DNA of 64,000 nt, from assembly GCA_040954595.2 (NCBI GenBank), contig CM082598.2, forward strand, positions 5,657,097 through 5,721,096, written 5' to 3'. The DNA is from Balanoglossus misakiensis (taxonomy: Eukaryota; Animalia; Hemichordata). Under the pieces are notes generated by a model, which did not search any database, had not been told where the DNA came from, and worked only from the letters and a program-made list of their open reading frames with translations. Position 1 is the stretch's first letter, and every line of letters starts with the position of its first letter. Below, one piece after another: positions 18,401 through 64,000 of the stretch. The position numbers and the translations under genes were made by a program.

Positions 18401-21400
18401 TAAATTTATACCTTTACTTATACCTCTATGGTTAAGCTATGTCCACATCTTATTGTGGAATTCTGGTCTGTGCAATAGTCCTGTACAGTGACTGTCTATT
18501 GGTCAGTGAGCACAATGGGGCCAAAATAAAGGCAAAATTTTGGGCTCACCTGTAACACCTGCTTAACACATTAATTATGTGCATACCCAATTCCGGGCTA
18601 ACTAATAGGGCTAGAGGTTTCGTTCTTGTGGGACATGGACCAGTATAGGGTCAAAATTTCTTGCCCAAATTTTGGGTGACCTCAGGTGACCTTTGACCTA
18701 CTTTCCTATATCTGGGCATCCAGAGCAGGTACAGACTTGGCGTTTGGAGGGTTGGGACTAAAATTGAAAAGCCAAAATATTGGTCACCTGTGACACCTGC
18801 ATATCTCATTTATTATGTGCATACCTAATTCCAGGCTAACCAATAGGGCTATAGGTTTGGTTTTTCTTGAACCTGGACCAGTATAGGGTCAACATTTCTT
18901 GCCCAAGTTTTGCATGACCTCAGGTGACCTTTGACCTACTTTATCATATCTTGGCATCCAGAGCAGGTACAGACTTTGCGTTTGGAGGGTTGGGACTAAA
19001 ATTGAAAAGCCAAAATTGGGGGTCACCTGTGACACCTGCATATCTCATTAATTATGTGCATACCTAATTCCAGGCTAACCAATAGGACTATAGGTTTGTT
19101 TTTTGTTGAACATGGACCAGTATAGGGTCAACATTTCTTGCCCAAATTTTGCATAACCTCAGGTGACCTTTGACCTACTTTTCCATATCTTGGCATCCAG
19201 AGCAGATATGCTTATTGCTATGTTGCTATGTGCTATGTTGGCTTGGGCCCGATATTGCTGCTTGCAGATCTGCTTGCAATGTCACCTGTAATTTTTATTC
19301 TGGTGTGTCACTGTTTTTGCATAATCCTCAAATGGGACCACAGTGTCCTTGACGTTATTTTTATTCTTCGTTCCAGGATTTCACAGCATTGCATGCAGCG
19401 TCCTTGATAGGTGGATTGGATACTATGAGTGTGTTGATTTCCCATGGTTCAGATGTCAATGCTAGGACTGAGGTACATGAACTAACAAGTTATTACTTCA
19501 TTATGGACAAAAAAATGACTTCATGTGTATTTATGTCTTTATGACCACAGTGATCTCTGGATAATTCTTTTATTGACATCATATGAACATTACAAAACAT
19601 TAATTTTGTTTTTTAGCTGAATAATCACTTTTGTTGGAATACCTTCATTGTGTCTAACTTCTACAGGTTAATGATAATCAACATTTATTTGTTTGTTTAA
19701 GGAAATTTCACCTTATATTTCAATTTTTGTGACATTGTTCTCATGCTCCTCCTTCATTACTTACAGAATGGAGACACACCTTTGCACTATGCAGCACAGT
19801 ATGGTGATGAAGGCCGTGTCAGATTGTTATTGGAACACAAAGCTGATGCTAACATACAAAACAAGGTAGATACCAACCTGATTTCTACAGGTTTATTCTA
19901 ATCTGATCGACATACAAATATTTGTTTGTGTGTTTGTTTGTTTGTTTGTTTTGTTTAAAGGAAACCTCACGTTACATTTGAATGTTTGTGACATTGTTCT
20001 CATGCTCCTCCTTCATTACTTACAGGGTGGAGACACACCTTTGCACGATGCAGCACAGTATGGTGATGAAGGCCGTGTCAGATTGTTATTGGAACACAAA
20101 GCTGATGCTAACATTCAAAACAAGGTAAATACCAACCTGACTTCTACAGGTTTATTCTAATCTGATCGACATACAAACATTTGTTTGTGTCTTTGTTTGT
20201 TTGTTTTGTTTAAAGGAAACCTCACGTTACATTTGAATGTTTGTGACATTGTTCTCATGCTCCTCCTTCATTACTTACAGAATGGAGACACACCTTTGCA
20301 CTATGCAGCACAGTATGGTGATGAAGGCCGTGTCAGATTGTTATTGGAACACAAAGCTGATGCTAACATTCAAAACAAGGTAAATACCAACCTGACTTCT
20401 ACAGGTTTATTCTAATCTGATCGACATACAAACATTTGTTTGTGTCTTTGTTTGTTTGTTTTGTTTAAGGAAATTTCACCTTATATTTCAATTTTTGTGA
20501 CATTGTTCTCATGCTCCTCCTTCATTACTTACAGAATGGAGACACACCTTTGCACTATGCAGCACAGTATGGTGATGAAGGCCGTGTCAGATTGTTATTG
20601 GAACACAAAGCTGATGCTAACATACAAAACAAGGTAAATACCAACCTGACTTCTACAGGTTTATTCTAATCTGATCGACATACAAACATTTGTTTGTGTC
20701 TTTGTTTGTTTGTTTTGTTTAAAGGAAACCTCACGTTACATTTGAATGTTTGTGACATTGTTCTCATGCTCCTCCTTCATTACTTACAGGGTGGAGACAC
20801 ACCTTTGCACGATGCAGCACAGTATGGTGATGAAGGCCGTGTCAGATTGTTATTGGAACACAAAGCTGATGCTAACATACAAAACAAGGTAAATACCAAC
20901 CTGACTTCTACAGGTTTATTCTAATCTGATCGACATACAAACATTTGTTTGTGTGTTTGTTTGTTTGTTTTGTTTAAAGGAAACCTCACGTTACATTTGA
21001 ATTTTTGTGACATTGTTCTCATGCTCCTCCTTTCATTACTTACAGGATGGAAACACACCTTTGCACTGTGTAGCAGGGTCTGGTGATGAAGGCCGTGTCA
21101 GATTGTTATTGAAACACAAAGCTGATGCTAACATTCAAAACACGGTAAATACCAACCTGACTTCTACAGGTTTATTCTAATCAACATACAAACATTTGTT
21201 TGTTTTTTTGGTTATTTGTATGTTTAAGGAGACCTCACATTACATTTCAATTTTTGTGACATTGTTCTCATGCTCCTCCTTCATTACTTACAGAATGGAA
21301 ACACACCTTTGCACTTTGCAGCAAGGGATGGTGATGAAGGCCGTGTCAGATTGTTATTGGAACACAAAGCTGATGCTAACATACAAAACAAGGTAAATAC

Positions 21401-24400
21401 CAACCTGACTTCTACAGGTTTATTCTAATCAACATACAAACATTTGTTTGTTTTTTTGGTTATTTGTATGTTTAAGGAGACCTCACAGTACATTTCAATT
21501 GTTGTGACATTGTTCTCATGCTCCTCCTTCATTACTTACAGGGTGGAGACACACCTTTGCACTATGCAGCATGGTTTGGTGATGAAGGCCGTGTCAGATT
21601 GTTATTGAAACACAAAGCTGATGCTAACATACAAAACAAGGTAAATACCAACCTGACATCTACAGGTTTATTCTAATCAACATACAAAACTTGTTTGTTT
21701 GTTTTGTTTACTTATTTAAGGAGACCTCACCTTGCATTTCAATTGTTGTGACATTGTTCTCATGCTCCTCCTTCATTACTTACAGAATGGAGACACCCCT
21801 TTGCATTATGCAGCAAAGGATGATGAGGAAGGCCGTGTCAGATTGTTATTGGAACACAAAGCTGATGTGACTATACAAAACAAGGTAAATACCTATACAG
21901 CCACAAATAATTGTCTGTTTGTTTGTTTATTTTTATCTCTTTATTATTTTAACATAGCGAAACTCTTCCTGAAATTGATGCTAATATACTGTAGAAATTG
22001 TTATTGGAACTCAAATCAAACTATTGATGTACCGGTATTTATAGTCAGTTTCATTCTACATTTCATGTTTGTTTTGAAGACATGTAGGGATCGTTATTGT
22101 AAAGAAGATATGGTGACAGTTTTAGATTACTCTTTCAGTTCATCTTTCAACAAACTGAAACTTATAAAGCCTATTTAGAGGAGATACCAACCACTATGGT
22201 TTCCTCATTTTGGAGTTTTGTTTTGCGTCCTTTGCAACCACTACCACCACCATTGTAGGTTGGTACTGCAGGTATGTTTTGCGGCACTGTTTATACGCAC
22301 CTATAGTCCCGATCTTGCTGTATCTCCTACATGAAGTACTTCCTTTTGTTGTTTTGCACAGGATGGCGACACAGCACTCCACATGGCAGCAATGAGCGCC
22401 ACTAGGTGGGATTATGGAAAAGTTGTGAAACTGTTGTTGCAATATGGAGCTGATCTTGACTGCAAAAATAAGGTACAATCTTCTTTTGCTTATTTCAATA
22501 TTTTATTCCATTAAACTGACACCATACGTTCGGATTAAGGTGGCATTGCATGAAAACTTGTGATTTTTGCCAAATTTTACTTTTTTACATAAATCGGTAG
22601 GCCTAATACTGACCCACATCCTGACTAATACGTCTTGGCGGAAATGGTGCATAATCACCCCAAAATAGCACTTTTCTGAATGAGTTCACAGCTTAACAAA
22701 TAGGTGTCAACAATGCAAATAGCCGTTTTTCTCGGTTTGCATTTTCGCTGCTCATGACAACTTCGGACTAAAATAGCTTCGCCCTACGTTGGCCGAATTT
22801 GCTCAAATTTTGACAGGGAATTGTGTATGACCCATCCAACAAAACGCTAGTTTTGTTTGTCGATAAAGTGGCGCTGGCGGGAATAAACTCTGATTCAATA
22901 CAACTCACCGTGAATTTGATCAAATTTTACTAAAAATCTAACTTTCAAACGCTGTTACTCCTCAATGGAAGCAGATAACGCAAAACAAAATTACCGTTTT
23001 TTTGCATGTGTACTCTAGTTTCGAATGACATATTAAGATGCATGATGCATGGTCAACTTTTTTACCTAATTTAAATTTAATGACATAATATCAAAAAAAA
23101 AATTTTTTCACCCAAAACCGCCACCATTTCCGGGGATCAATAATATTTGCAACTCAAACAAATGTTCAAAAACTCAGCTTCCAGAATATATATGGTTTAT
23201 GGGGGTTTTAACATTGTCTTTGATGAGAAATAGGCCTCTGAAAAAGTCTCGACGGTTTCATGCAATGCCACCTTAACTCCCATTTTTAAAGTTGAATCTT
23301 CACAACCATTGAATTTGAAATTCAATTTGTATGACTGTACAATTTTATCAGAATGTTTCAACAAAACACTCATAAAACAGTATGAAGTTGATGCAATTAT
23401 AATGTTCAGCAAATAGTACTTTCCCAATCCATTGTTTTTGTTGTTGATAAATTGGACTTTGGGCATTGGACTCTCTCACAGTCCCCCTCGCCGCCTATGC
23501 ATATACTTATGGTCTGGTTGCATGTGTGTCGCTACACCATGGTTCTTCTCCTTTGCTAAACGGTTGAGGGCGCGTTAGTGTACAACTACAACATGGAAAG
23601 AACCTAGTAGCAAACCGTGGGCTGTGAGAGAGTCAATACGATATTACGGTATATACAAATATTCTCGGGCATAGCATTTTGAGAGATGTAGGGTCATGTT
23701 CCTAAGAATCCTTTGACTCGACATGACGATGCCAATCCTAACACTGACTTTCTTATGGTTTTTGATCGGCTTTCTGAAATTTTTAGTTATGATGAATTAC
23801 AATGATACCCTTTATCTTACTTTTGATCTCTCATAATATACACGAATGTTCATTTCTCTTGTAGTTGTCTACATACTAGAAATGTGATGGAATCATTGAC
23901 AATTATGAAAGTTTCAATGTCACAGAAGCTGTCGGCTAATCTATTAAATGATTTCTGTTTTAAAGTATTATCTTATCAATATCAACATCTTATAAACTGA
24001 TAGTTACTTCTTTTATCCCAATAAAACTTAGACCGGAAAGACACCACTAGATGTCACTGGAAGTTACAGCTCAGCTGTTAAGGATGTGTTGTTGGATTAC
24101 ATTAGGGTGAGTGTAATTCTTCAAATTTGAGTAATACATAACCTGACGTGCAAATTCTTAATATGTATCCTGAATTAAGAGTGTCCGTAAATATCAATGT
24201 TAGTAATAATTTACTACTTAATTCATGTATTTTCATGATTTCTTTTATTCAACATACAAGAAACGAGATGAGTTCAATGACCTGATGAAGGAATCAGGTG
24301 TGGAATGCGACACTTTTAAGTTGTTCTTCGCTGGAGATGGTGGAGTTGGTAAGACTACACTGTTGAAGTCACTTCAGAGGGTATGTTTGTATTTATTTTT

Positions 24401-27400
24401 TGTGTAACAGTTCTAGTATGCCATAACATCATAATACATTCACATTGTATGTATAGTGCATATTAGGAAACTACTGGCAGAATGCCACAGGTAACTTTGG
24501 ATAATTAAAACATACGCATTGTTGATGAAATTTTGTGTACTAGGTATACAGTGAAATTGTTTTTCTTTCTTTTTTCCTTATCAAAGACTCAAGAAATAAC
24601 CCTGGGATCTGAAGAAAGTGAACATATTCCCACACCTGGTATTGATGTCCAAAGTGTTCATATTCCTGATGTAGGAAATGTCAGTGTTTGGGATTTTGCC
24701 GGCCAGGCTGAGTATTACGTCACTCATAACATGTTTCTGGGAGCACCCAATGCTGTCTCCATATTGGTGTTCAAAGCTACAGACGAGAATGGTCAACTCA
24801 ACACCTTTGAAGGTGTGTTCCCACAGGTAAGAATCTTCACAATAAATTAACTAAACATGCTTGAGACTGGAAATCCAATGAATGTATTTCATCATTTTCC
24901 ATATCAAAGACAGAAGAAACTGACCATTCCCGAAATATCACACTTTCCTTGAATTATAATCTCATATTCATGATCCCTTTAAATTTGCCTCAAAATAAAT
25001 ATAATATTTGTATAATTTATACAAATATTCTCATTTGTAGATTTTGTTTTGGTTGCGGTTTCTGAAAGGAACAACCCACATGGATAGGTATTCATTCGAT
25101 GAGCCCGGTGAAGGATACAAGAAACCAGTGGTGATATTGGTTGCAAGTCGAGCTGATCAGTTGAAGAGAATCGATATGGCTCTAGGTTGGTGTTGTCAGC
25201 TCAATCACATGCATATACTGTACAATTTCAAGCTTATTATTTAACATGTACTGGTAGGTAACATGTGTTGATTAGGGAGAAGAACATGTATAGTTTTTGG
25301 ACATGTCAAAGTTTGAAAAATAACAGCTATTATAATGTCCATTTTAAGCACTAGCTAGCTGTCATTAAGGAAAAGATTCACAGCTGAACTTTATGCCTTT
25401 GACTACTTTTCTACTTTTTTGTAATTTCACAGCTCGTCATATGCTAGACGAAGTTCTGACAAGAGCACAGGAAATGTTTCAAGATTATTTGGACATACCA
25501 AGCACCATATTTCTGGTGAATTGCCGTGATTCTACAGACGGAAACATGAAGAAATTCCGCTCCTGTTTACATCAGAAAAAGGTAACAATTGTTTGCTGTA
25601 TTCAATATTGCCTCTGAATTGTTCTACCTTTCTAAACACACAAACACACTATTCACTTCAGTTACCGTACAATTACAAGATTCAGTTTCATACCTTCACC
25701 TTGAAAAAAATGCAAAGACTCAAAGTGTTGGCAACATATTACCAATGTCTGTTTGATGACTCTTGCTTAAGCACCACTTGCAAATGATTAGGTTACATAT
25801 TTATCCAATTTTAGGAGCCACCAAAATGTGAACTGTTTCAAAATGTAACATAACATAGTCACATTTAACAAATATGTGATTACCTCCTTGTGTTTAATTC
25901 ATCACTTGTGAGACTAGCTTGACAAGTTATGCTGTTATTTAATTTTTCTTGTTGTAATTTTTAGACAGTAAAAACACTTCCAAGCGTGTGTGCCAAGATA
26001 ATGGAAAAGAAGAGGGAATTATATGATGACTTCCCAGCTCTTTATTGGATAGAATATGTGGCAAGAATCAAAGAAATATACCCCACGATTGACGAAAGTT
26101 TCTTACAAAAAGCCACCAACTATCTGCATAACATCGGCCAGGTCAGTAACAAGAAACAACATGTTGCTCATCCATTCTCTTTCAGTGCAGATACTAGGCA
26201 GAGTGAATGTGATATTTCCATCAGTTACAAACTATTTTTCTCTTCAAAAATCTGCAAAGGCAAATTTTATAATGTATTATTGTCTCACTGTATGATTGTA
26301 ATTGTTTGTGGTTTTGGATCCCCAATATTTCTTTAATCATAATAATATCACAAAATTACCAAAGATTATGTTAAGGTGACTTTAAGATTAAACTATTCAA
26401 CTTGGCTACCTGTAAATTGGCTTGTTGTGAGATTTTGAGGATGAACTAAACACATATGCATGTCAAAAATTTGTCCGATGATAATTGTTTAAACAATAAT
26501 GTATGCCCCAATATGCAATAATTGACAAAAGCACATATTATGGAGTAAATGCAATGATTTCTTTTGGCTAGGGTTGATATATCAATGAGCAGGATCATTA
26601 TGGTATTGGCATCAAATGGTTTAGATAATTCATTATCAGTGGCATACTGTAGTCCCCACTGAAGCAATAGAAATGAAATTATTGAAGTTCTAAATACAGT
26701 TGTTGTGTAATTCAGTATTTAAGGATTGTGCCTTGCATACATTCATGTATCAAAATATTTCTTTTCTTGTGTTCAGCTTTTGTATGTGAAGAAGTCATCT
26801 TCGGAAAGAGAAGATGTCGTGGTATTGGATCCAAACTGGTTGTGTTACAGGATATTTGGACCAATGTTGGCCACCCCTTTATTTGCACAGTTCTGTTCCA
26901 GATTCAAGAGAGATTGCTTTCAGACGATGGATCAGATAGAAGATGTACTTGGTGACCGTGTAAACAGCAAACTTCTGATTGACCTTCTGGAAGATTTTGA
27001 GCTTCTCTGTCATGCACATGGCCTCACAAAGACTGGAGAGAAACTTTTCGTCATACCAGGGCTTCAAGACGATGATATGCCTGAAGGTCATTGGGAGAAG
27101 AGCGAGGTGAAGACAATTTACCTTGGAAGACGATTCGAATGCCACGATAAAACAGATTCCTTTACGGCAGGCTTTTTCCCAAGATTACAGACCCGTCTAT
27201 ATAAGCGTTTCACCAACCTTGGCCATCCACCCAGTGGCTTATGGAGAAATGGTATCAAAGTGTGTCATGAAGTTGAAGGTCTTGTCTTTATGACCAATGG
27301 CAGAAGGGCAGTCAATGTCTGCGTACGAGTTAAAGACAAGAAGTCGATAGGTGAGGGCTACAAACTTCTTGAGATGGTTTCCAAAGAAGTACATGATGTC

Positions 27401-28261
27401 TTCTCGATCGCCTGTCCAGGCAACAGGATGAATCAGCTTATCCTGAGTGCAGATTCTCTTGCAAACCACAGCAATGTAGAAAAAATACCATTTTACACTC
27501 TTGATGACGTGCTACGTGCAGAAGACATGGGAAAGAAAGTGTACAACAAAGAAGTCGGTGAAGCAGAAGATGTTTGTGACCTCCTTTGTCAAGGTCATGA
27601 CACAACAATCTTACGACATAAATGGAAAAGATGTGATATCAAATGGATGCTAGAAGAAACCAGAAGAAACCTGACAAGGAGAATGCAGTCTCATCGTGAT
27701 CCTTCTCTGAGCTATGGCAGCATGGCAGATTTCATGGGCATTAAGCTCCAGGATATCAAGGGATTTGAATCAATGGCGGGTCAGGCAGACAGACCAGTTA
27801 CAGAGTATCTCTTTGAAGAGTGGTGTCGTATATGCGCAGAAAAGAAACGACTTCAACGGGAAAAAGACACCACAGAACTCCAGACCACTTCTCATGACAC
27901 ACATGATGTTGATAGTGGTTTGGCAACGATGTCACCGTCATCACAACAACCAGACTCAAGCGTCCAATTCCGACGAGGAAAAGACACCACTACAGCTGCA
28001 GGTGCCAGAGCCATCTCACCTGACATAGAGACCTCCGAAGGTCGTTCAGCAAAAATGTCACACTCATCAACATCATCCCCCCAACAAGATTCTGATGAAG
28101 AAGTGAATGCTCAGAAAACAAGACGGAAGTATCCACATTTAAAGGGACCTGTCTTCGAAAGCAACTTCGAGAATCTGCTGGCAATATTCAGCACCATGGG
28201 AAGAGAGGACATGATCGGATTGATTGAAGAGATGTTCGAGAAATTGGAAGAACGCAGATAG
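12499..28261 (+). CDS. Ankyrin-Roc-COR-death domain ROCO protein, DAPK1-like without kinase, copy 1 (spliced, ~1240 aa if all exons are used)
   Basis: GT-AG exons in continuous frame: 12499-12555 (MGNFCCKK..), 17247-17312, 17677-17787, 19377-19472, nine ANK exons 19767-21884, 22362-22472, 24032-24106, 24261-24380 (P-loop GDGGVGKT), 24587-24826 (PTPGID, WDFAGQ), 25041-25185 (VILVASRAD), 25433-25581, 25965-26141, 26777-28261 (COR motifs VVLDPNWLC and GFFPRLQ, then a death-domain-like tail). The paralogs have the same exon structure. Confidence 0.85.
13124..15450. mobile_element. ~735-bp TTAA-flanked element (Kolobok-like) interrupted by a nested insertion
   Basis: TIR GGTGGCATTGCATGAAA; uninterrupted copies at 22539-23272 and 59919-60652. 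Confidence 0.85.
13192..14799. mobile_element. PIF/Harbinger-type non-autonomous element carrying two further MITEs (~13489-13747, ~13749-13940)
   Basis: TIR GGGACCGTTCAGTTTTTACGGC, TAA TSD. The host site ggcctaatactg is intact in the other copies of the host element. Confidence 0.85.
15478..16542. mobile_element. Inverted, one-end-truncated copy of the same Harbinger-type element
   Basis: Reverse-complement match to 13227-14799 without the nested MITEs; the second TIR is missing. Confidence 0.75.
18011..19356. mobile_element. Helentron/DINE-1-like non-autonomous element in a ROCO intron
   Basis: Absent from the same intron in copies 2 and 3. Inserted in a T-run, subterminal IR GGTCCCATT/AATGGGACC, 5' (GTAT/GGAT)n tract, three ~240-bp internal tandem repeats. 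Confidence 0.6.
19740..21890 (+). repeat. Tandem array of nine ~250-bp exon+intron units, each with one 33-aa ankyrin exon
   Basis: Exon starts 19767, 20026, 20281, 20535, 20790, 21046, 21294, 21542, 21786. Shared acceptor cattacttacag; donor gtaaatacc (gtagatacc in unit 1); variable (TTTG)n tract in the introns. Confidence 0.95.
22539..23272. mobile_element. TTAA-flanked ~735-bp element (Kolobok-like)
   Basis: TIRs GGTGGCATTGCATGAAA, TTAA on both sides, single TTAA at the empty site ~48278. Confidence 0.85.
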
Positions 28262-31230: not shown

Positions 31231-31384
31231 CCTGACAATTTCCAAACGGATAAACACCGTCTTCTTCACCGTAATATAGACACTGGGCAACACTGGTATT
31301 CGACTGGGACACTGGTGACTGCTGTCCTGTCAATCGAGGTCAGATTCAGATTCGAGCTCGTGCTCTACTCTTCTGCTCATTAGA

Positions 31385-31560: not shown

Positions 31561-31633
31561 ATTCTGAATTTGACTCAAATTGACTTCTTACTGTTGTTTC
31601 TGTGTGCATTGCGTTACGACCAGACCTCTACCT

Positions 31634-45200: not shown

Positions 45201-48200
45201 GCTCACTGTAGTGAAATTCCTGGAGGTTAATAGTCAAATGTCAAGTGCTTGACACATATGCAAATTTTTAGTATCAGATTTGTGATGTCATTTTTATTCT
45301 TCATTCCAGGATTTAACAGCATTGCATGCAGCGTCCTTGAAAGGTGGATTGGATACTATGAGTGTGTTGATTTCCCATGGTTCAGATGTCAATGCTAAGA
45401 CTGGGGTACATGAACTAACAAGTTATTACTTCATTATGGACAAAAAAATGACTTCATGTGTATATTTATGTCTTTATGACCACAGTGATCTCTGGATAAT
45501 TCTTTTATTGACATCATATGAACATTACAAAACATTAATTTTGATTTTAGCTGAATAATCACTTTTGTGGGAATACCTTCATTGTGTCTAACTTCTACAG
45601 GTTAATGCTAATCAACATTTATTTGTTTGTTTAAGGAAATTTCACCTTATATTTCAATTTTTGTGACATTGTTCTCTTGCACCTCCTTCATTACTTACAG
45701 GATGGAGAAACACCTTTGCACTCTGCAGCAAGGGATGGTGATGAAGGCCGTGTCAGATTGTTATTGGAACACAAAGCTGATGCTAACATACAAAACAAGG
45801 TAAATACCAACCTGACTTCTGCAGGTTTATTCTAATCTGATCGACATACAAACATTTGTTTGTGTGTTTGTTTTGTTTAAAGGAAATCTCACATTACATT
45901 TGAATTTTTGTGACATTGTTCTCATGCTCCTCCTTTCATTACTTACAGGATGGAGACACACTTTTGCACTTTGCAGCAAGGAATGGTGATGAAGGCCGTG
46001 TCAGATTGTTATTGGGACACAAAGCTGATGCTAACATTCAAAACAAGGTAAATTCCACCATGACTTCTACAGGTTAATTCTAATCAACATACAAACATTT
46101 TTGTTTGTTTGTTTGTTTGTTTGTTTGTTTAAAGGAAACCTCACAGTACATTTCAATTGTTGTGACATTGTTCTCATGCTCCTCCTTCATTACTTACAGG
46201 ATGGAGACACCCCTTTGCACATTGCAGCAGCAAGGGATGGTGATGAAGGCCGTGTCAGATTGTTATTGGGACACAAAGCTGATGCTAACATACAAAACAA
46301 GGTAAACACCAACCTGACTTCTACAGGTTAATTCTAATCAACATACAAACATTTTTGTTTGTTTGTTTGTTTGTTTGTTTGTTTGTTTGTTTAAAGGAAA
46401 CCTCACAGTACATTTGAATTTTTGTGACATTGTTCTCATGCTCCTCCTTTCATTACTTACAGGATGGAGACACACCTTTGCACTTTGCAGCAAGGTATGG
46501 TGATGAAGGCCGTGTCAAATTGTTATTGGAACACAAAGCTGATGCTAACATACAAAACAAGGTAAATACCAACATGACTTCTACAGGTTTATTCTTATCA
46601 ACATACAAACATTTGTTTGTTTGTTTTGTTTACTTATTTAAGGAGACCTCACAGTACCTTTCAATTTTTGTGACATTGTTCTCATGCTCCTCCTTCATTA
46701 CTTACAGAATGGAAACACACCTTTGCACTTTGCTGCAAGGTATGGTGATGAAGGCCGTGTCAGATTGTTATTGGAACACAAAGCTGATGTAACCATACAA
46801 AACAAGGTAAATACCAACATGACTTCTACAGGTTTATTCTTATCAACATACAAACATTTGTTTGTTTGTTTTGTTTACTTATTTAAGGAGACCTCACAGT
46901 ACATTTCAATTTTTGTGACATTGTTCTCATGCTCCTCCTTCATTACTTACAGAATGAAGAATCACCTTTGCACTATGCAGCAAGAGGGTATGGTGATGAA
47001 GGCCGTGTCAGATTGTTATTGGAACACAAAGCTGATGCTAATATACAAAACAAGGTAAATACCAACCTGACTTCTACAGGTTTATTCTAATCTGATCGAC
47101 ATACAAATATTTGTTTGTGTGTTTGTTTGTTTGTTTGTTTTTTTTAAAGGAAACCTCACGTTACATTTGAATTTTTGTGACATTGTTCTCATGCTCCTCC
47201 TTTCATTACTTACAGGATGGAGACACACCTTTGCAATTTGCAGCAAGAGGGTATGGTGATGAAGGCCGTGTCAAATTGTTATTGGAACACAAAGCTGATG
47301 CTAACATACAAAACAAGGTAAATACCAACATGACTTCTACAGGTTTATTCTAATCAACATACAAACATTTGTTTGTTTGTTTTGTTTACTTATTTAAGGA
47401 GACCTCACAGTACATTTCAATTTTTGTGACATTGTTCTCATGCTCCTCCTTCATTACTTACAGGGTGGAGACACACCTTTGCACTATGCAGCAAGGAATG
47501 GTGAGGAGGGCGATGTCAGATTGTTATTGGAACACAAAGCTGATGTTAACATACAAAACAAGGTAAAAACCTATACTGAATGATACAAATACATGACTGT
47601 TTGTTTGTTTATTTTAATCTCTTTATTTTTTTAATGTAGGTAAACTCTTCATGAAATTGATGCTAATATAGTGTAGAAATCTTTCATTACTAAAAGTATG
47701 GACACCTTTACAATGTGCAGCAATGAATACCATGTCAGATTGTTATTGAAACTCAAATCAAACTTTGGATGTACCGGTATTCATAGTCAGTTTCATTCTA
47801 CATATGTTTTTTTATTGAAGACATTTATGTAGAAATCGTTATTGTAAAGAAGATATGGTGACAGTTTTAGATTACTCTTTCAGTTCATCTTTCAACAAAC
47901 TGAAACTAAAAGCCTATTTAGAGGAGATACCAACCACTATGGTTTCCTCATTTTGGAGTTTTGTTTTGCGTCCTTTGCAACCACTACCACCACCATTGTA
48001 GGTTGGTACTGCAGGTATGTTTTGCGGCTCTGTTTATACGCACCTATAGTCCCGATCTTGCTGTATCTCCTACATGAAGTACTTGCTTTTGTTGTTTTGC
48101 ACAGGATGGCGACACAGCACTCCACATGGCAGCAATGGGCGCCACTTGGAGGAATTTTCGAAAAGTTGTGATACTGTTGTTGCAATATGGAGCTGATCTT

Positions 48201-51200
48201 GACTGCATAAATAAGGTACAATCTTCTATTGCTTATTTCAATATTTTATTCTGTTACACTGACACCATACGTTCTGATTAACTCGACCCGTTTTTAAAGT
48301 TGAATCTTCACAACCATTGAATTTGAAATTCAGTTTGTATGACTGTACAATTTTGAATTATCAGTTGGTAATACCAGCAGTTATTAATTATAGTATTAGC
48401 TTATCAATATCAACATCATAATTGATAGTTACTTCTATCCCAATAAAATTTAGACTCGAGAGACACCACTTAATGTCGCTGCAAATAGGTCTGTTAAGAA
48501 TGTGCTGTTGGATTACATTAGGGTGAGTAAAATTTTTCTTTTGTCATGAATTTGAATAATTTATAACCTGAAATCTTATGTACCCTGCATTAAGAGTGTC
48601 CATAAATATCAATGTAAGTAATAATTTGTTACATGTATTTTCTGATTTCTTTATTTAACAAGAAACGAGATGAGTTCAGTGACCTGATGAAGGAATCAGG
48701 TATGGAATGTGACACTTTTAAGTTGTTCTTCGCTGGAGATGGTGGAGTTGGTAAGACTACACTGTTGAAGTCACTTCAGAAGGTATGTTTGTATTTATTT
48801 TTTGTGTAACAGTTCTAGTAAGCCAAAACATCATAATACATTCACATTGTATGTATAGTGCATATTAGGCAACTACTGACAGAATGCCACAGGTGAACTT
48901 TGGATAATTAAACAGGGTTCGTACGCTCCTGGAAACTCCTGGAATCTCCTGGAATTTGAAACCCCTCCTGGAAACTCCTGAAATCTCCTGGAAATTCAAA
49001 ATTTCTCCTTGAAACTCCTGGAAAACCGCGAGTCACGATCGCATTTCACCAGATCGTGAAACAGTACGCGTTGCCCATTTCACTCAGCGCACCAGTTATC
49101 TTTAGACAGGCGTCCTATAAATAGTATCATTGACGTAGTAACGCACAAATTGCAACAACTAACGCAACTCAGCGTTCCGGTCGCAACAATATATCTAAAA
49201 CTTGACAAAAGATGTAGCAACTTTTGTTAGAGGTCATGCCTAGTCTCGGTTACCCAGACGCCTTTGCTTCTTCCGATGCTCTCCAGAAAAGGGTCTGGGG
49301 AAATGCTATTGAAAGCTTTGTAAAACAAAATGGCCGATGTCAGGATTTTGATCATCGCCTGATTGGCTGAGCTGTCAGTATGACCCAGGTCACTGCAATA
49401 GTTTCGACAATCGTCTACCAAAGATATTTCATATAATTTCTCCAACAATGCTAACAGAGGACGCCTTTTGCATTTCGCATCAACCAACAAGTACCGGTCT
49501 CTTGATATGAAGATACGACAAATAATCGCACATTCTTTACTATCAATCACGTGATCTGGCAATGCGTCCCATGGCGCAGTCATTTCCAGATGACGGGCAA
49601 GCAATATTTCGGCATCCAGTAAAAGTTTTTCCGAGTATGTTTTTACTTTAGAACCGCCAAACACATAACATGTATCGGGTATGTTGCCTCATCAGCCTCA
49701 TTGCATTTCGTCTGCACAGTCTTTGTCTGCACCACGTAAGTCCACGTTGCTGAAGTTGCCCGTCATCTGGAAAGTTGAATGCGAACGTAACTGCCACCTG
49801 AACGCGTCTGACGTCATTTGATAGCGAAGAATTGTCGAGAGTCAGTGACCTGGGTCATACTGACAGCTCAGCCAATCAGGCGATGATCAAAATCCTGACA
49901 TCGGCCATTTTGTTTTACACAGCTTTCAATAGCATTTCCCCAGACCCTTTTCTGGAGAGCATCGGAAGAAGCAAAGGCGTCTGGGTAACCGAGACTAAGG
50001 TCATGCCATGTGTCCGCGCGTCTGCAGAATACTTGTGCAGACGGCCGCGGCAGACACCCGTGAAATCGATATTCAAGGTCAATTAGTGATTTCAAAAAGA
50101 AGCAAAAAAGGCAGACGTTTTTTGTGTTTTTTTTTCAGCAGCAAAACAGTAATTTCCATCGGTAATTTGTCGATTTTATCACGACAAAATTCATTGCTTT
50201 AGGGACTGTTCTGTTTTTACGGCCGGGGCGGTAAACTCCCGGGGAGGGGGGTGGGGAGGTCACTTAAATTTTAGCCAAATATGTTAAATGATTTGGGAAC
50301 CCAGGAGATCTCTTGGTGAAAATTGTTTTACTAGGCCTTCATGGGGAGGTCATTGAAATTTGTACTATCACAGTCAAAAATCTTTAAATGATTTGTTAAA
50401 CTAGAATAACAAGTGCATGTGAATGTAACAGTAGTAGTAAATTTGCACAATTTTGTTGCATAAAACATCCTGGAAAATGGCATTTTTACCACAAAAACTC
50501 CTGGAAAATTACTGGAAATCTCCTGGAAACTCCTGGAATTTTGAATTGCTCTAGGTGTATGAACCCTGTTAAAACATGCATTGTTGATGAAATTTCGACA
50601 TTTTGTGTAGGTATATAGTGAAATTTTTTTCTTTCACTTTTCCTTATCAAAGACTAAAGAAATAACCCTGGGATCTGAAGAAAGTGAACACATTCCCACA
50701 CCTGGTATTGATGTCCAAAGTGTTCATATTCCTGATGTAGGAAATGTCAGTGTTTGGGATTTTGCCGGCCAGGCTGAGTATTACGTCACTCATAACATGT
50801 TTCTGGGAGCACCCAATGCTGTCTCCATATTGGTGTTCAAAGCTACAGACGAGAATGGTAAACTCAACACCTTTGAACGTGTGTTCCCACAGGTAAGAAT
50901 CTTCACAGTAAATTTATTAATATTAAACATGCTTGAGACTGGAAATCCAATGAATGTATTTCATCATTTTCCATATCCAAGACAGAAGAAACTGACCATT
51001 CCCGAAATATCACACTTTCCTTGAATTATAATCTCATATTCATGATCCCTTTAAATTTGCCTCAAAATAAATATAATATTTGTATAATTTATACAAATAT
51101 TCTCATTTGTAGATTTTGTTTTGGTTGCGGTTTCTGAAAGGAACAACCCACATGGACAGGTATTCATTCGATGAGCCCGGTGAAGGATACAAGAAACCAG

Positions 51201-54200
51201 TGGTGATATTGGTTGCAAGTCGAGCTGATCAGTTGAAGAGAATAGATATGGCTCTAGGTTGGTGTTGTCAGCTCAATCACATGCATATACTGTACAATTT
51301 CAAGCTTACCCGGTATAATATAACATGTACTGGTATGTAACATGTGTTGATTTGTGTATAGTTGTTGGATATGTCAAAGTTTGAAAAAAACATCTATTAT
51401 AATGTCCATTTTAAGCACTAGCTAGCTGTCATTAAGAAAAAGATTCACAGCTGAACTTTATGCCTTACTTTCTACTTTTCTACTTTTTTGTAATTTCACA
51501 GCTCGTCATATGCTGGACGAAGTTCTGACAAGAGCACAGGAAATGTTTCAAGATTATTTAGACATAGTGAGTGACATATTTCTGGTGAATTGCCGTGATT
51601 CTAAAGACAGAATAATGAAGAAACTCCGCTCCTGTTTACATCAGAAAAAGGTAACACATTGAATTGTCTGAATTGTTCTACCTTACAATTACAAGATTCA
51701 GTTTCATAATTCCTCCTTGAAAAAATGCAAAGACTCAAAGTGTTGGCAACATATTACCAATGTATGTTTAATGACCCTTGCTGAAGCACCACTTGCAAAT
51801 GATTGGGTTACATATTTATCCAATTTTAGGAGCCACCAATATATGGTAACATAACATAGTCACATTTGACTAATATGTGATTACCTCCGTGTGTTTTATC
51901 CATTACTTGTAAGACTTACTTGACAAATTATGCTTGTTATTAAATTTTAGACAGTAAAAACACTTCCAAGTGTGTGTGCCAAGATAATGGAAAAGAAGTG
52001 GGCCTTGTACCGGTACAAAGGAAAGTTCCCTGCACTTTATTGGAAAACATATATGACAAGAATCAAAGAAATATACCCCACGGTTGATGAAAGTTTCTTA
52101 CGTAAAGCCACCAACTATCTGCATGACATCGGAGAGGTCAGTAACAAGAAAGAACATGTTGCTCATCCATTCTCTTTCAGTACAGATACTAGGCTGAGTG
52201 AATGTGATATTTCCATCAGTCTCAAATTATTTTCTCTTCACTAATCTGCAGTGGCAAATTTTATAATATTATTGTCTCATGTGTGCTTCATGCAGATTTT
52301 CATGTATCAAAATATTTCTTTTCTTGTGTACAGCTTTTGTTTGTGAAGAAGTCATCTTCGGAAAGAGAAGATGTCGTGGTATTGGATCCAAACTGGTTGT
52401 GTTACAGGATATTTGGACCAATGTTGGCCACCCCTTTATTTGCAGAATTCAGTTCCAGATTCAAGAGAGATTGCTTTCAGACGATGGATCAGATAGAAGA
52501 TGTTCTTGGTGAAGGTGTAAACAGCAAACTTCTCATCGACCTTCTGGAAGATTTTGAGCTTCTCTGTCATGCACATGGCCTCACAAATACTGGAGAGAAA
52601 CTTTTCGTCATACCAGGGCTTCAAGACGATGATATGCCTGAAGGTCATTGGGAGAAGAGCGAGGTGAAGACAATTTACCTTGGAAGACGATTCGAATGCC
52701 ACGATAAAACAGATTCCTTTACGGCAGGCTTTTTCCCAAGATTACAGACCCGTCTATATAAGCGTTTCACCAACCTTGGCCAACCGCCCAGTGGCTTATG
52801 GAGAAATGGTATCAAAGTGTGTCATGAAGTTGAAGGTCTTGTCTTTATGACCAATGGCAGAAGGGCAGTCAATGTCTGTGTACGAGTTAAAGACAAGAAG
52901 TCGATTGGTGAGGGCTACAAACTTCTTGAGATGGTTTCCAAAGAAATACATGATGTCTTCTCGATCGCCTGTCCAGGCAACAGGATGAATCAGCTTATCC
53001 TGAGTGCAGATTCTCTTGCAAACCACAGCAATGTAGAAAAAATACCATTTTACACTCTTGATGACGTACTACGTGCAGAAGACATGGGAAAGAAAGTGTA
53101 CAACAAAGAAGTCGGTGAAGCAGAAGATGTTTGTGACCTGCTTTGTCAAGGTCATGACACAACGATCTTACGACATAAGTGGAAACGCTGTGATATCAAA
53201 TGGATGCTTGAAGAAACCAGAAAAACACTGACCATGAGAATGGATATTGCAACTATAGAGCCTGAGCAGCACTACGCCTTCATGGCCGAACATATGGGAA
53301 TCGTCTACCAGGATGTCAGGGCACTTGAAGAGATTGCGGGTCGGGCAGGCAAACCAGTTACAGAGTATCTCTTTCAAGAGTGGTGTCGTAGATGGGTAGG
53401 GACAAGACGTCTTCAATGGGAAAAAGACACAGAACTCCTGACCACTTCTCATGACACACAAAATGTTGATAGTGGTTTGGCAACGATGTCACCGTCATCA
53501 CAACAACCAGACTCAAGCGTCCAATTCCGACGAGGAAAAGACACCACTACAGCTGCAGAATTCCTGACCACTTCTCATGACACACATGGTGTTGATAGTT
53601 GTTTTGCAACGATGTCAGCATCATCTGAACAACCAGACCCAAGCGTCCAATTCCGACGAGGAAAAGACACCACTACAGCTGCAGAATTCCCGGCCACTTC
53701 TCATGACACACATGATGTTGATAGTGGTTTGGCAACGATGTCACCGTCATCACAACAACCAGACTCAAGCGTCCAATTCCGACGAGGAAAAGACACCACT
53801 ACAGCTGCAGAATTCCCGACCACTTCTCATGACACACATGATGTTGATAGTGGTTTGGCAACGATGTCACCGTCATCACAACAACCAGACTCAAGCGTCC
53901 AATTCCGACGAGGAAAAGACACCACTACAGCTGCAGAATTCCTGACCACTTCTCATGACACACATGGTGTTGATAGTTGTTTTGCAACGATGTCAGCATC
54001 ATCTGAACAACCAGACCCAAGCGTCCAATTCCGACGAGGAAAAGACACCACTACAGCTGCAGAATTCCGGACCACTTCTCATGACACACATGATGTTGAT
54101 AGTGGTTTGGCAACGATGTCACCGTCATCACAACAACCAGACTCAAGCGTCCAATTCCGACGAGGAAAAGACACCACTACAGCTGCAGGTGCCAGAGCCA

Positions 54201-54445
54201 TCTCACCTGACATAGAGACCTCCGAAGGTCGTTCAGCAAAAATGTCACACTCATCAACATTGTCACCCCAACAAGATTCTGATGAAGTGGAGGCTCAGAA
54301 AACAAGACGGAAGTATCCACATTTAAAGGGACCTGTCTTCGAAAGCAACTTTGAGAATCTGTTGGCAATATTCAGCACCATGGGAAGAGACGATATGGTC
54401 GGATTGATTGAAGAGATGTTCGAGACATTGGAAGAACGCAGATAG
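42269..54445 (+). CDS. Ankyrin-Roc-COR-death domain ROCO protein, copy 2 (spliced, ~1510 aa if all exons are used)
   Basis: Exons 42269-42325; five 66-nt exons starting at 43296, 43555, 43730, 43905, 44164; 44897-45010; 45310-45405; eight ANK exons 45701-47562; 48105-48215; 48454-48522; 48663-48782 (GDGGVGKT); 50653-50892 (WDFAGQ); 51113-51257; 51502-51650; 51951-52136; 52334-54445. No internal stop seen. Confidence 0.85.
42818..43131. mobile_element. ~310-bp interspersed element with an internal ~140-bp hairpin
   Basis: Absent at the equivalent site in copy 1 (~13028); near-identical inverted copy at 44336-44650. Confidence 0.8.
43270..44235 (+). repeat. Five tandem 66-nt phase-0 exons encoding an acidic 22-aa linker (VHPTDSESDEGTTALQEYKDPQ-like)
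   Basis: Acceptor atatttcag and donor gtaagtgac/gttagtgac in each unit; two intron length variants. Confidence 0.85.
44336..44650. mobile_element. Inverted second copy of the ~310-bp hairpin element
   Basis: Reverse complement of 42818-43131; absent from copies 1 and 3 (tgtgtttcagaataat). Confidence 0.8.
45670..47570 (+). repeat. Tandem array of eight ankyrin exon+intron units
   Basis: Exon starts 45701, 45949, 46200, 46463, 46708, 46953, 47216, 47464. Three exons are 102 nt, the rest 99 nt. Confidence 0.95.
48913..50568. mobile_element. Unclassified TIR element (CAGGGTTC termini, 5-bp TTAAA duplication) in a Roc intron
   Basis: Empty site ataattaaaacat at ~24502; subterminal CCTGGAAA repeats at both ends. 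Confidence 0.8.
49241..49997. mobile_element. Nested Mutator-like MITE with ~150-bp TIRs and 10-bp TSD
   Basis: TAGTCTCGGTTACCCAGACG...CGTCTGGGTAACCGAGACTA, AGGTCATGCC on both sides. Confidence 0.9.
53441..54188 (+). repeat. Coding minisatellite, 6 x 126 bp (42 aa, Ser/Thr-rich), in the last ROCO exon
   Basis: Units start at 53441, 53567, 53693, 53819, 53945, 54071. Copy 1 has a single unit (~27883-28000). Confidence 0.95.
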
Positions 54446-59918: not shown

Positions 59919-60652
59919 AGGTGGCATTGCATGAAAACTTGTGATTTTTGCCAAATTTTACTTTTTTACATAAATCGGTAGGCCTAATACTGACCCACAC
60001 CCTGACTAATACGTCTTGGCGGAAATGGTGCATAATCACCCCAAAATAGCACTTTTCTGAATGAGTTCACAGCTTAACAAATAGGTGTCAACAATGCAAA
60101 TGGCCGTTTTTCTCAGTTTGCATTTTCGCTGCTCTTGACAACTTCAGACGAAGATAGCTTCGCTCTGCGTTGGCCGAATTTGTTCAAATTTTAACTGGCG
60201 ATTGTGTATGACCCATCCAACAAAACGGTATTTTTGTTAGTCGATAAAGTTTCCCTGCCGGGAATAAACTCTGATTCAATACAACTCACCGTGAATTTGA
60301 TCAAATTTTACTAAAATCTAACTTTCAAAGGCTGTTACTCCTCAATGGAAGCAGATAACGCAAAACAAAATTACCGTTTTTTTGCACGTGCACTCTAGTT
60401 TCGAATGACATATTAAGATGCATGATGTATGGTCAACTTTTTTACCTATTTTAAATTTCATGAAATAATATCAAAAAATGGGTTTTTTCACCCAAAATCG
60501 CCATAATTTCCGGGGATCAATAATATTTGCTACTCAAATAAAAGTTCACAAACTCAGCTTCCAGAATATATATGGTTTATGGGGGTTTTAACGTTGTCTT
60601 TGATGAGAAATAGGCCTCTGAAAAAGTCTCGACGGTTTCATGCAATGCCACC
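59919..60652. mobile_element. Third copy of the ~735-bp TTAA element
   Basis: Same TIRs and internal sequence as 22539-23272, slightly more diverged. Confidence 0.85.
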
Positions 60653-60952
60653 TTAGGATAGATGACTACTCAAAAGTTAGAACATTGTCCTGTCACCACC
60701 CTCCTGTAGCTGATCAATGTAAAATTTGAATGTCATGGGTTATTCAACAGGGGGTGAGCGATCGCATCACCGTGACTGTCCCTTGCTGGTTGCATTTTGC
60801 GAGTCTTTGATAGAAAGTTGTCTGTTTGGTCTTGTGTTTGAAGTTTTTGAGACAGAGTCCTTAGATGGATTAACATTACATTGATGATCACAATCAGTGA
60901 CATAAGATAAAGTTGGTGGGTTTTACAGCTTTTGGTGTGTTTCAGCTGCATG

Positions 60953-63900
60953 ATGGGCAATTTTTGTTGTAAGAAAACCAGGCCTTCCCGGAAATATGAA
61001 GACCCAGGGGTAAGTGACCTTGTTGAACTGAAGTTGCTGCTGTAGTGAAAAAGTAGTCTGTCTGTGAGAGGAAAATGTTAACATTAATTGTCATGGCATT
61101 AACAAGATTATGTATGACAGTGAACTAATTGTGAAATGTACATGTACATCACAGTATTAGTTTATAGCTACAATGATTGTAGCGGGTGCTGCTAGATTGA
61201 CTGGTGTGTTTGCAGCCCTACCGCGCTACAAGGCCCTATGGGTAAATACCCAATCAACTTTCTGCAGTGGATCTGTTGTCAACTCAGTTACAGGGTTGAA
61301 CACTGACACCTGGTAAACTTTGAAAACGGCAAGGTCGAATCCCCCAAATAAACACCTCTGACACCCACATTTTCCTGATTTTATTAAAATGCTGATAAAT
61401 CCACTGATTCTTAGTTCAAACTTTATTTGAGCATATCCGCTACAATCATTGCAGCTATTGTTCATCATGACCACAAGTTTATCGACGTACAAAACCCAAA
61501 CCTTTGTGGAATGTTGTTGTTCTAATGGCATTTAAGTGGTTACCAGGGTTTTAAGCTTTTGGTGTGTTTTGGGGATATTTCAGGTACACCAAACAGACAG
61601 TGAATCTGATGAGGAAACAACGGCTTTGCAGGAATATAATGACCCACAGGTAAGTGACTTTAGGTGTTTCAGAATAATATAAGTATAGTGAGATTATTCA
61701 TGATGCTATTGTACTGTTTTTGATGGACAAAATACTTTGTGTTTTGGGGATATTTCAGGTACACCCAACAGACAGTGAATCTGATGAGGGAACAACGGCT
61801 TTGCAGGAATATAATAACTCACAGGTAAGTGACTATTGAACAGAACTCAAGTTGTGGGCAGCTAGCTTGCGTTAGAGGAAATATTGTCTGTCTGATTGAG
61901 AGGAAAACTTTAAATTGTAACACTCAAGTATGTGTTTCAGAATAATGTCTTTCAGTATGCTGAGATTATTTATCATTCTATTGCATTCTGTTTGTGAAGA
62001 CTAATCATGGCCTTACTTTACCCATTGTATGATGTCATCTTTTTTTATCCACAGTGATATCACAGTTTAATTTTTTGGATTCACTTATTCATCAATGAAG
62101 ATCTCAATGTTTTCCTATAATATAACTGCTGTTTATGATTTCATATTGAGAATATTTTGATAAAACAAGTGTTGCCTATTGATTGTTACAGGTTCTCATC
62201 AATGCTGCAGGGGATGGTGACATTGCAAAAATCCAGTCGCTGATAGCTGATGGATATGATGTCAATGCAAGGGGTAAATTATACGTGGAGTATCACCTGA
62301 TTGCCGTAAGTGTTTATATTTGCCTTTTGTACCACAATAACATAAATAAATGGTGTCTTGTATCAAACATAATTAATGGAAAAAGGGCGGCGAGGGAGAG
62401 ACTTTGTCCCTTTAACCGCATATCTATGACTGCAGCTCACTGTAATGAATTCCTAGAGGTTTATAGTTAAATGTCAAGTGCTTGACACATATGCAAATTT
62501 TTAGTATCAGATTTGTGATGTCATTTTTATTCTTCGTTCCAGGATTTAACAGCATTGCATGCAGCGTCCTTGAAAGGTGGATTGGATACTATGAGTGTGT
62601 TGATTTCCCATGGTTCAGATGTCAATGCTAAGACTGAGGTACATGAACTAACAAGTTATTACTTCATTATGGACAAAAATGGCTTCATGTGTATTTATGT
62701 ATTTATGACCACAGTGAACTCTGGATAATTCTTTGATTGACATCATATGAACATTACAAAACATTAATTTTGTTTTTAGCTGAATAATCACTTTTGTGGG
62801 AATACCTTCATTGTGTCTAACTTCTACTGGTTTATGCTTATCAACATTTATTTGTTTGTTAAAGGAAATTTCACCTTATATTTCAATTTTTGTGACATTG
62901 TTCTCATGCTCCTCCTTCATTACTTACAGGATGGAAACACACCTTTGCACTCTGCAGCACAGTATGGTGATGAAGGCCGTGTCAGATTGTTATTGGAACA
63001 CAAAGCTGATGCTAACATACAAAACAAGGTAAATACCAACCTGACTTCTACAGGTTTATTCTAATCTGATCGACATACCGGTACAAACATTTGTTTGTGT
63101 CTTTGTTTGTTTGTTTTGTTTAAAGGAAACCTCACGTTACATTTGAATTTTTGTGACATTGTTCTCATGCTCCTCCTTTCATTACTTACAGTGGGGAAAC
63201 ACACCTTTGCACTTTGCAGCAGTGGATAGTGATGAAGGCCGTGTCAGATTGTTATTGGAACACAAAGCTGATGCTAACATTCAAAACATGGTAAAATACC
63301 AACCTGACTTCTACAGGTTAATTCTAACCAACATACAAACATTTTGTTTGTTTGTTTGTTTAAAGGAAAGCTCACAGTACATTTCAATTTTTGTGACATT
63401 GTTCTCATGCTCCTCCTTCATTACTTACAGGATGGAGGCACACCTTTGCACTTTGCAGCCATGTATGTTGATGAAGGCCGTGTCAAATTGTTATTGGAAC
63501 ACAAAGCTGATGTGACCATACAAAACAAGGTAAATACCAACATGACTTCTACAGGTTAATTCTAACCAACATACAAACATTTTGTTTGTTTGTTTGTTTG
63601 TTTGTTTGTTTGTTTGTTTGTTTAAAGGAAACCTCACAGTACATTTCAATTTTTGTGACATTGTTCTAATGCTCCTCCTTCATTACTTACAGGATGGAAA
63701 CACACCTTTGCACTATGCAGCAAGGTATGGTGATGAAGGCCTTGTCAAATTGTTATTGGAACACAAAGCTGATGCTAACATACAAAACGAGGTAAATACC
63801 AACATGACTTCTACAGGTTTATTCTAATCAACATACAAACATTTGTTTGTTTGTTTTGTTTACTTATTTCAGGAGACCTCACAGTACATTTCAATTGTTG

Positions 63901-64000
63901 TGACATTGTTCTCATGCTCCTCCTTCATTACTTACAGAATGGAGACACACCTTTGCACTCTGCAGCAAGGTATGGTGATGAAGGCCTTGTCAAATTGTTA
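60953..64000 (+). CDS. Ankyrin-ROCO paralog, copy 3, 5' part (runs off the window)
   Basis: Exons 60953-61009 (MGNFCCKKTRPSRKYEDPG), 61584-61649, 61759-61824, 62192-62305, 62543-62638, then ANK exons at 62930, 63192, 63431, 63693 and 63938 (partial). Roc-COR is not in the window. Confidence 0.75.
61164..61458. mobile_element. MITE
   Basis: TIR ATAGCTACAATGATTGTAGCGG / CCGCTACAATCATTGCAGCTAT; absent from the equivalent intron position of copies 1 and 2. Confidence 0.6.
62900..64000 (+). repeat. Tandem array of at least five ankyrin exon+intron units (cut by the window end)
   Basis: Exon starts 62930, 63192, 63431, 63693, 63938. Confidence 0.95.

Follow-up and report, generated by a model that had tools for sequence, protein, structure and literature searches.

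Evidence for positive selection at binding-face codons of ankyrin cassette exons in three tandem ROCO genes of the acorn worm Balanoglossus misakiensis

Brown-algal ROCO genes encode one leucine-rich repeat (LRR) per exon, and recombination and selection on the concave face are described for them (Zambounis et al., PMC3341825; Teng et al., PMC11378527); splice variants of these genes have also been reported (PMC11378527). In the fungus Podospora, NLRs with ankyrin (ANK) repeats show conserved repeats, repeat-number polymorphism as detected by polymerase chain reaction, and selection at five positions of the binding surface (Dyrka et al., PMC4986451), and homogenised-repeat arrays have been reported in animal NLRs too (PMC13449251). 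It is common for an exon to cover complete repeat units (PMC3995336), and the designed library ANK-N5C randomises ankyrin positions 2, 3, 5, 10, 13 and 33, which a crystal structure places on one surface formed by the beta-turn and helix 1 (PMC4308713). The present study concerns a 64,000-nucleotide stretch of DNA from the hemichordate Balanoglossus misakiensis (GCA_040954595.2, contig CM082598.2, positions 5,657,097 to 5,721,096 of the forward strand; hereafter the window, from whose first letter all coordinates are counted), in which arrays of ankyrin cassette exons occur in three tandem paralogs, A, B and C. With a probability of about 0.62, we interpret these as three tandem ANK-ROC-COR-death-domain genes in which five binding-face codons are positively selected, and whose products are likely intracellular sensors lacking a kinase, caught in a germline arms race with ligands that are foreign and probably derive from pathogens. 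A literature search whose coverage of subscription papers was incomplete revealed no account of diversifying ANK-ROCO genes in animals, in agreement with a preliminary description of the window made without database searches; however, ANK arrays that are both homogenised and hypervariable and are joined to a signalling NTPase have been published for fungi (PMC4986451), which lowers the novelty of the locus.

A six-frame scan combined with a splice-site parse identified 21 complete cassette exons and one truncated where the window ends, the latter being omitted from every count. Paralog A contains nine 99-nt exons (19767..21884), paralog B contains eight, five of 99 nt and three of 102 nt (45701..47562), and paralog C contains four complete exons plus the cut one (62930..64000), all on the plus strand. 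Every complete cassette exon (21/21) is in phase 0 with AG/GT ends, and splice sites are near-identical across all cassettes. Eighteen of the 21 exons are 99 nt long, while the three of 102 nt (46200, 46953 and 47216) have an extra codon inserted at the end of helix 1; a single cassette exon matches Pfam Ank with an E value of 4.7e-11. The unit of repetition is the exon together with its intron, approximately 250 bp, which is tandem and mosaic and differs in number and order between paralogs, each array being short (2 kb). Since the unit is in phase 0, any gain or loss keeps the reading frame. Cassette introns measure 140-163 nt; among 19 of them, compared over 128 gap-free columns, nucleotide diversity (pi) is 0.060, in addition to a variable TTTG run. 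These results bear out the count of 22 fitting phase-0 exons with near-identical introns in three paralogs given in the preliminary description, although it makes no mention of the three helix-1 insertions.

If TPLH is taken as consensus positions 6-9, as is conventional, exon positions 1, 3, 8, 11, 12 and 33 correspond to ankyrin consensus positions 3, 5, 10, 13, 14 and 2. The assignment of cassette residues to the binding face follows this consensus numbering and the published library structure (PMC4308713). The residues originally listed for exon positions 1, 3, 8, 11-12 and 33 match those found in this study, but position 33, which had been placed among the variable binding sites, is lysine in 18 of the 21 cassettes with three singletons, and lies outside the selected class identified below. 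Similarly, helix 2 had been called nearly fixed, which is mostly but not wholly the case, as exon position 19 (R/K) and exon position 23 (K/G) each vary in 4 of 21 cassettes. As DNA, 20 of the 21 cassette exons are distinct, and 18 distinct combinations of face residues (face words) are found among the 21, with most face residues occurring in more than one paralog.

Evidence for positive selection was obtained for consensus positions 3, 5, 10, 13 and 14. The six codons used for testing were fixed beforehand and are those of the classical randomised set of designed ankyrin repeat proteins (DARPins). At these codons, non-synonymous diversity (piN) was 0.25, compared to a synonymous diversity (piS) of 0.074, an intron pi of 0.060 and a non-face piN of 0.041; in the alignment behind the values 0.25, 0.074 and 0.041 an incorrect codon had been removed from the 102-nt exons, and a corrected alignment, with one codon dropped in one exon and codon 11 masked in two, was used for the mutation counts, the codon models and later analyses. 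A tree-free minimum-mutation count gave 19 changes in 15.3 sites for the six codons versus 11 in 21.5 synonymous sites (p=0.013), and the same face count compared to 29 changes in 97 intron-core columns gave p=7e-6. Adding consensus position 10 raised the face count to 24 changes in 17.6 sites (p=0.004). The face excess is visible in each paralog alone. Codon models, run with our own code on two trees and two frequency models (four fits), yielded ratios of non-synonymous to synonymous rates (omega) of 4.2-5.5 for the six face codons and of approximately 1.0-1.5 for the whole exon, with likelihood ratios of 16-46 for M2a versus M1a. In all four fits, exon codons 1, 3, 8, 11 and 12 belonged to the selected class with posterior probabilities of 0.95 or more, whereas codon 33 remained below 0.5, and consensus position 2 was therefore rejected as a selected site. 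In neutral simulations with block-wise free genealogies, the 19 extra amino acids observed at the six codons were reached by 0 of 1000 replicates in each of four settings, the maximum being 16. The site-model check proposed in the preliminary description, carried out here on the 21 complete cassettes of the window, gives an omega above 1 at the face codons, which also vary more than the introns, and the diversifying selection claimed for the binding face is supported at consensus positions 3, 5, 10, 13 and 14 but not at position 2.

The distribution of changes within codons bears on mutational explanations of this excess. All fifteen changes in codons 8, 11 and 12 affect codon positions 1-2 and leave position 3 untouched, a distribution that speaks against a mutational hot spot. 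Local hypermutation and CpG decay were both rejected, since the hottest codons do not vary at their third positions and do not lie at CpG sites. Two sets of repeats nearby served as controls, with 28 neighbouring zinc fingers giving a piN of 0.003 and a piS of 0.172, and seven tail repeats in the duplicated block giving a piN of 0.070 and a piS of 0.061. Between paralogs A and B, the first capping ANK exon (22362-22472) differs by 8 non-synonymous and 0 synonymous changes and another non-cassette flanking ANK exon by 4 and 0, and most of COR is identical.

The cassettes also bear marks of turnover and recombination. Across 19 units (two of the 21, having no cassette intron, were omitted), 23 informative sites gave 97 incompatible pairs out of 253 and a minimum of seven recombination events (Rm=7); the incompatible fraction was 0.11 at short range (35 near pairs) and 0.47 at long range (123 far pairs), and 22 of 91 intron-only site pairs were incompatible. 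Incompatibility within units means that breakpoints fall inside exons and introns, contrary to the exon-bounded shuffling of repeats that had been suggested earlier, and a minisatellite-like unit that undergoes unequal crossing-over and conversion would appear to fit better. In paralog A, units 1-2 and 4-5 differ by 0.9% and are apparently a recent block duplication. Cassette distances within paralogs equal those between paralogs (0.055-0.065), single-copy introns between copies differ by 1.1-7.7%, and cassette order is not collinear among paralogs, with B cassette 46953 being 2.2% from an A cassette. The equal distances and non-collinear order would fit either an exchange of cassettes among paralogs or their rapid rearrangement once duplication had occurred, and cassette similarity across paralogs may also be compatible with ancestry shared before the duplication. 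A decayed cassette remnant was found behind the last B cassette (47690..47770, plus strand; 72.7% over 66 nt), with a more eroded trace in A near 21960-22030. Together, mosaicism, differences in copy number and order, and the decayed remnant support the gain, loss and conversion of cassettes put forward in the preliminary description. No inverted or separate donor cassettes were found in the window, where the only minus-strand match is a 35-nt simple repeat.

Assuming GT-AG splicing, open gene models of 1241 aa (21 exons) and 1510 aa (24 exons) were obtained for paralogs A and B, respectively, while paralog C is cut at 287 aa. The order of the domains, with the reading open, is an acylation-like start followed by ANK, ROC, COR and the death domain, and all exons named here are on the plus strand. 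The putative start exon of A (12496..12555; MMGNFCCKK...) has a phase-0 GT donor and is identical before B (42266-42325) and near-identical before C (60950-61009), the reading MMGNFCCKK being common to all three copies. Its second methionine fits an N-myristoylation pattern and is followed by two cysteines, so the exon may encode a myristoylation/palmitoylation-like N-terminus. Downstream are 66-nt acidic linker exons, one in A (17247-17312), five in B (43296-44229) and two in C (61584-61649, 61759-61824), which constitute a second phase-0 exon family and resemble the start exon in their flanks and 3' end. Each paralog then has two divergent N-terminal ANK exons (A: 17677-17787, 19377-19472; B: 44897-45010, 45310-45405; C: 62192-62305, 62543-62638), and the hairpin end of the first of these (17760-17787, 44980-45010, 62275-62305) shows sharp differences in sequence and length between paralogs. 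In A, the cassettes are followed by capping ANK exons (22362-22472, 24032-24106), ROC GTPase exons (24261-24380, 24587-24826, 25041-25185, 25433-25581), the start of COR (25965-26141) and a last exon (26777..28261, with the stop at 28261) containing COR and then a death-domain fold (~27629-28237) split by a disordered serine/threonine-rich insert. The capping ANK, ROC, COR and death-domain exons of B extend over 48105..54445.

The ankyrin-ROCO identity assigned in the preliminary description is supported by Pfam, motif and fold matches. Exon 24587-24826 alone matches Pfam Roc with 29.4 bits (cut-off 27), and the P-loop GxxxxGKT and DxxG motifs are intact in A and B, from which ROC is predicted to bind and hydrolyse GTP; NB-ARC/NACHT scores on the P-loop exon were below cut-off. 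COR directly follows ROC, with a Pfam COR-B match of 29.1 bits and a Foldseek match to 3dpu (E 1.4e-8; VIA Z 14.8, root-mean-square deviation (rmsd) 3.0, 230 aligned). The predicted model of the death domain has a predicted local distance difference test score (pLDDT) of 86.5 and aligns with the MyD88 death domain (Z 12.8, rmsd 2.5, 98 aligned), with the top ranks filled by death-fold chains. A sequence search of the last exon against the PDB gave 0 hits, both COR and the death domain having been recovered by fold search. No kinase was found in the window, where the putative start exon sits directly upstream, and tblastn searches with nine relatives, including the kinase-bearing P0139, matched only ANK-ROC-COR spans.

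The first half of the death domain (A ~27600-27900, B 53160-53440) diverges strongly between A and B amid near-identical COR. Within this region, a tract of 25 codons (amino acids 301-325 of the last exon) has a proportion of non-synonymous differences (pN) of 0.42 and of synonymous differences (pS) of 0.53, so that selection was rejected as the cause of the divergence in favour of a replaced tract, which looks as if it came from a distant paralog and could change adaptor choice. By eye, the B tract is closer to a Glandiceps relative than the A tract is. A 42-aa unit rich in S/T/D is present six times in B (53430-54188, as six copies of a 126-bp unit) and once in A (~27870-28000), within the loop predicted to interrupt the death domain, and has a piN approximately equal to its piS.

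The closest named relatives are hemichordate "DAPK1-like" models from Ptychodera (50%), Glandiceps (46-47%) and Saccoglossus (41-42%), with identity measured over COR and the database names being automatic; these hits by themselves would point to an acorn worm as the likely source of the window. RefSeq models with this name were found in hemichordates, amphioxus and echinoderms (P0001-P0009, P0013, P0021, P0023, P0032, P0050 and P0156). In a quick tree of 45 ROC-COR rows, midpoint-rooted and without an outgroup or clade test, A and B fall in a 15-row group (SH-aLRT 99) whose 10 named members are all hemichordate. This group is nested in one of 31 rows (SH-aLRT 98) that has subgroups of amphioxus (6 of 10 named) and of echinoderms (5 of 6 named), and DAPK-named rows form a separate group (SH-aLRT 96). 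Among 153 proteins scanned, 35 contained at least two ANK repeats, and six of these contained at least three near-identical repeats (Glandiceps, 1; Ptychodera, 2; Branchiostoma, 2; the brittle star Amphiura, 1). The wider animal ankyrin-ROCO family postulated earlier is thereby supported, with similar arrays in acorn worms, amphioxus and a brittle star. At the protein level, six array profiles had heterozygosities of 0.51-0.80 at positions 3, 5, 10, 13 and 14 versus 0.08-0.42 elsewhere; the profile omitted P0005 and some terminal repeats, and covered 8/9 and 6/6 repeats of P0001, 16/19 of P0013, 5/7 of P0023, 23/24 of P0032 and 9/9 of P0050. The array consensuses of the relatives share only 8-19 of 33 residues, which indicates that homogenisation arose separately. 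In the Glandiceps model P0001 (residues 39-533), the homogenised array alternates two repeat types, the duplicated unit often being a 66-aa pair. Two amphioxus RefSeq isoforms, P0166 and P0167, which are predicted models, differ by exactly 99 aa, or three whole repeats, and give a weak hint of exon skipping.

In the mechanism proposed here, unequal crossing-over and short conversion tracts would homogenise the scaffold and introns of the cassettes and would also reassort face residues within and between arrays, and selection would keep new face variants. The concave ANK face would bind a changing ligand and thereby switch the ROC-COR GTPase, upon which the death domain would recruit an adaptor leading to cell death or NF-kB-type signalling, possibly at the membrane through the acylation-like N-terminus. 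ROC-COR modules act as switches in ROCO proteins, and death domains serve as adaptor-binding domains. Bacterial LRR-AP-GTPase-COR proteins with variable effectors, proposed as counter-invader systems (PMC8195603), and TIR proteins with ROC-COR in Aplysia (PMC9334734) make an immune role plausible. A broader proposal, which is tentative and on balance doubtful, is that these genes belong to an unrecognised class of animal innate receptors, kinase-less and possibly membrane-anchored, in which a DARPin-like repertoire evolved independently in acorn worms, amphioxus and brittle stars and is diversified by germline sub-exon conversion and by exon skipping in each animal. Invertebrate deuterostomes have many uncharacterised "DAPK1-like" genes; if these are diversifying sensors, ROCO GTPases would be a further variable recognition family of animals beside NLRs and TLRs, and the pattern known from brown algae and fungi would gain a third, independent origin. 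The arrays also reveal which ankyrin positions are randomised by natural selection, namely 3, 5, 10, 13 and 14 together with insertions in helix 1, and this is of relevance to the design of binders.

Several observations weigh against the interpretation of these genes as diversifying sensors, for which the immune role is suggested by analogy. The alignment used for the codon models comprises 33 codons and shows recombination, so that significance is inflated, and the tree-free test against exon synonymous sites reaches only the p=0.013 given above. The scaffold omega of 0.60-0.64 points to weak constraint, and the introns are less variable (0.30 per site) than exon synonymous sites (0.51) and may be homogenised beyond neutral expectation, hence a lenient baseline. 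Of the 35 relatives with ANK repeats, 29 do not contain homogenised arrays, and since positions 2, 3, 5, 10 and 13 are the most variable in ordinary ankyrins also (PMC4308713), the protein-only pattern in the relatives does not show selection. With respect to the gene models, the putative start exon could be entered in phase 1 from an upstream coding exon, MG starts are present in only 7 of 85 long relatives, and the window's own death-domain sequence has no Pfam Death match, such a match being present in 14 of 20 aligned members.

Because the selection tests are silent on the ligand, real positive selection could also arise from a conflict in which the arrays follow a rapidly evolving partner, either self or selfish, as in allorecognition, germline conflict or the recognition of transposon proteins. 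Fungal homogenised-repeat NLRs were characterised through allorecognition (PMC13449251), and ROCO copies A and B each adjoin a zinc-finger gene with a copy-variable array; however, an effector of the death-domain type and expansions particular to lineages of several marine phyla are in keeping with innate sensors, and the models show no signal peptide or surface domain by eye, so a non-pathogen partner is considered unlikely. It is improbable that diversity is generated somatically, through combinatorial exon skipping similar to Dscam or through cassette rearrangement. Phase-0 cassettes with near-identical splice sites would leave any subset in frame, the amphioxus isoforms P0166 and P0167 differ by exactly three repeats, and brown-algal ROCOs have reported splice variants (PMC11378527), but there are only 4-9 cassettes per gene, the window holds no separate donor or inverted copies, the amphioxus isoforms are predicted models among which three of the four pairs compared differ elsewhere, and the pattern is already explained by germline turnover.

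Neutral minisatellite turnover in a duplication-prone region, with constraint relaxed only at surface residues, would be in keeping with the four other tandem arrays in the duplicated block (units of 84, 126, 175 and 238 bp), the whole-exon omega of approximately 1.0-1.5 and the natural tolerance of surface positions. However, relaxation caps omega at 1, whereas the face codons are above every neutral baseline, the third positions of the hottest non-CpG codons are invariant, and omega in the neighbouring arrays is far below or near 1, all of which makes neutral turnover very improbable. An assembly artefact, in which haplotypes were concatenated as paralogs or repeat units were mis-assembled, appears hardly credible; the single-copy intron differences of 1.1-7.7% are within reach of alleles in a highly heterozygous animal, but the exons are distinct as DNA in 20 of 21 cases, all frames are open, the differences fall on the first two positions of codons, the majority of face residues are shared by at least two paralogs, and the three copies have different insertions and a replaced death-domain tract. 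In addition, false tandem alleles would still imply strong array polymorphism.

Apart from the ROCO genes, the duplicated block contains a convergent C2H2 zinc-finger gene on the minus strand (29009-30702 and 55188-58048), whose 84-bp finger array has approximately 8 versus 22 copies. Twenty-five of the 28 fingers are identical as protein with a piS of 0.17, which indicates that copy number varies under strict purifying selection, unlike in PRDM9-type arrays. A single isolated zinc-finger-like reading frame on the plus strand (32742-33014) is perhaps a fragment of another zinc-finger gene. Mobile-element-like insertions, which differ among paralogs, include one of ~740 bp at three places (14798-15454, 22535-23275 and 59916-60655), a 321-bp element in two inverted copies (42818-43138 and 44330-44650), and an insertion of ~1.6 kb, bounded by short repeats on either side, in a ROC intron of B (48900-50560). 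A non-coding 238-bp tandem repeat (2.8 copies, 18528-19205) was found in an intron of paralog A only.

Compared to described systems, the positively selected ANK-ROCO genes of this window can be set beside the brown-algal LRR-ROCO genes, with which they share a ROC-COR protein, one repeat per symmetric-phase exon, recent paralogs that are near-identical outside the repeat domain, recombination of repeats (intra- and intergenic in the algae, and possibly between paralogs here too), and diversifying selection on the concave face, an immune role having been proposed for the algal genes as well. They differ in having ankyrin repeats instead of LRRs, in being animal genes with a C-terminal death-domain fold, and in having near-identical introns that belong to a compact tandem unit; in addition, the algal introns contain intact repeat exons on their non-coding strand, and none are found in this window. 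The fungal ANK-NLRs with high internal conservation (HIC) of repeats resemble the window genes in their near-identical ANK repeats, five selected sites (there on the inner helix and beta-hairpin) and concerted evolution (PMC4986451), and repeat exchange between paralogs has been shown in fungal NLRs for WD40 and TPR repeats. However, fungal NLRs are STAND ATPases (NACHT/NB-ARC) with C-terminal repeats and an N-terminal effector, whereas the genes described here have a ROC-COR GTPase, N-terminal repeats and a C-terminal death domain. DAPK1 has the same ANK-ROC-COR-death domain order, with the C-terminal death domain being matched here by a predicted fold, but no counterpart of the N-terminal kinase and calmodulin-regulated domain of DAPK1 was found in the window by the tblastn searches. 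Designed ankyrin libraries likewise have a fixed scaffold with variation at consensus positions 3, 5, 10 and 13, but are artificial, while in the window consensus position 33 is invariant, position 2 barely varies and the repertoire is small. Overall, the genes of the window work like the brown-algal and fungal systems and are members of neither.

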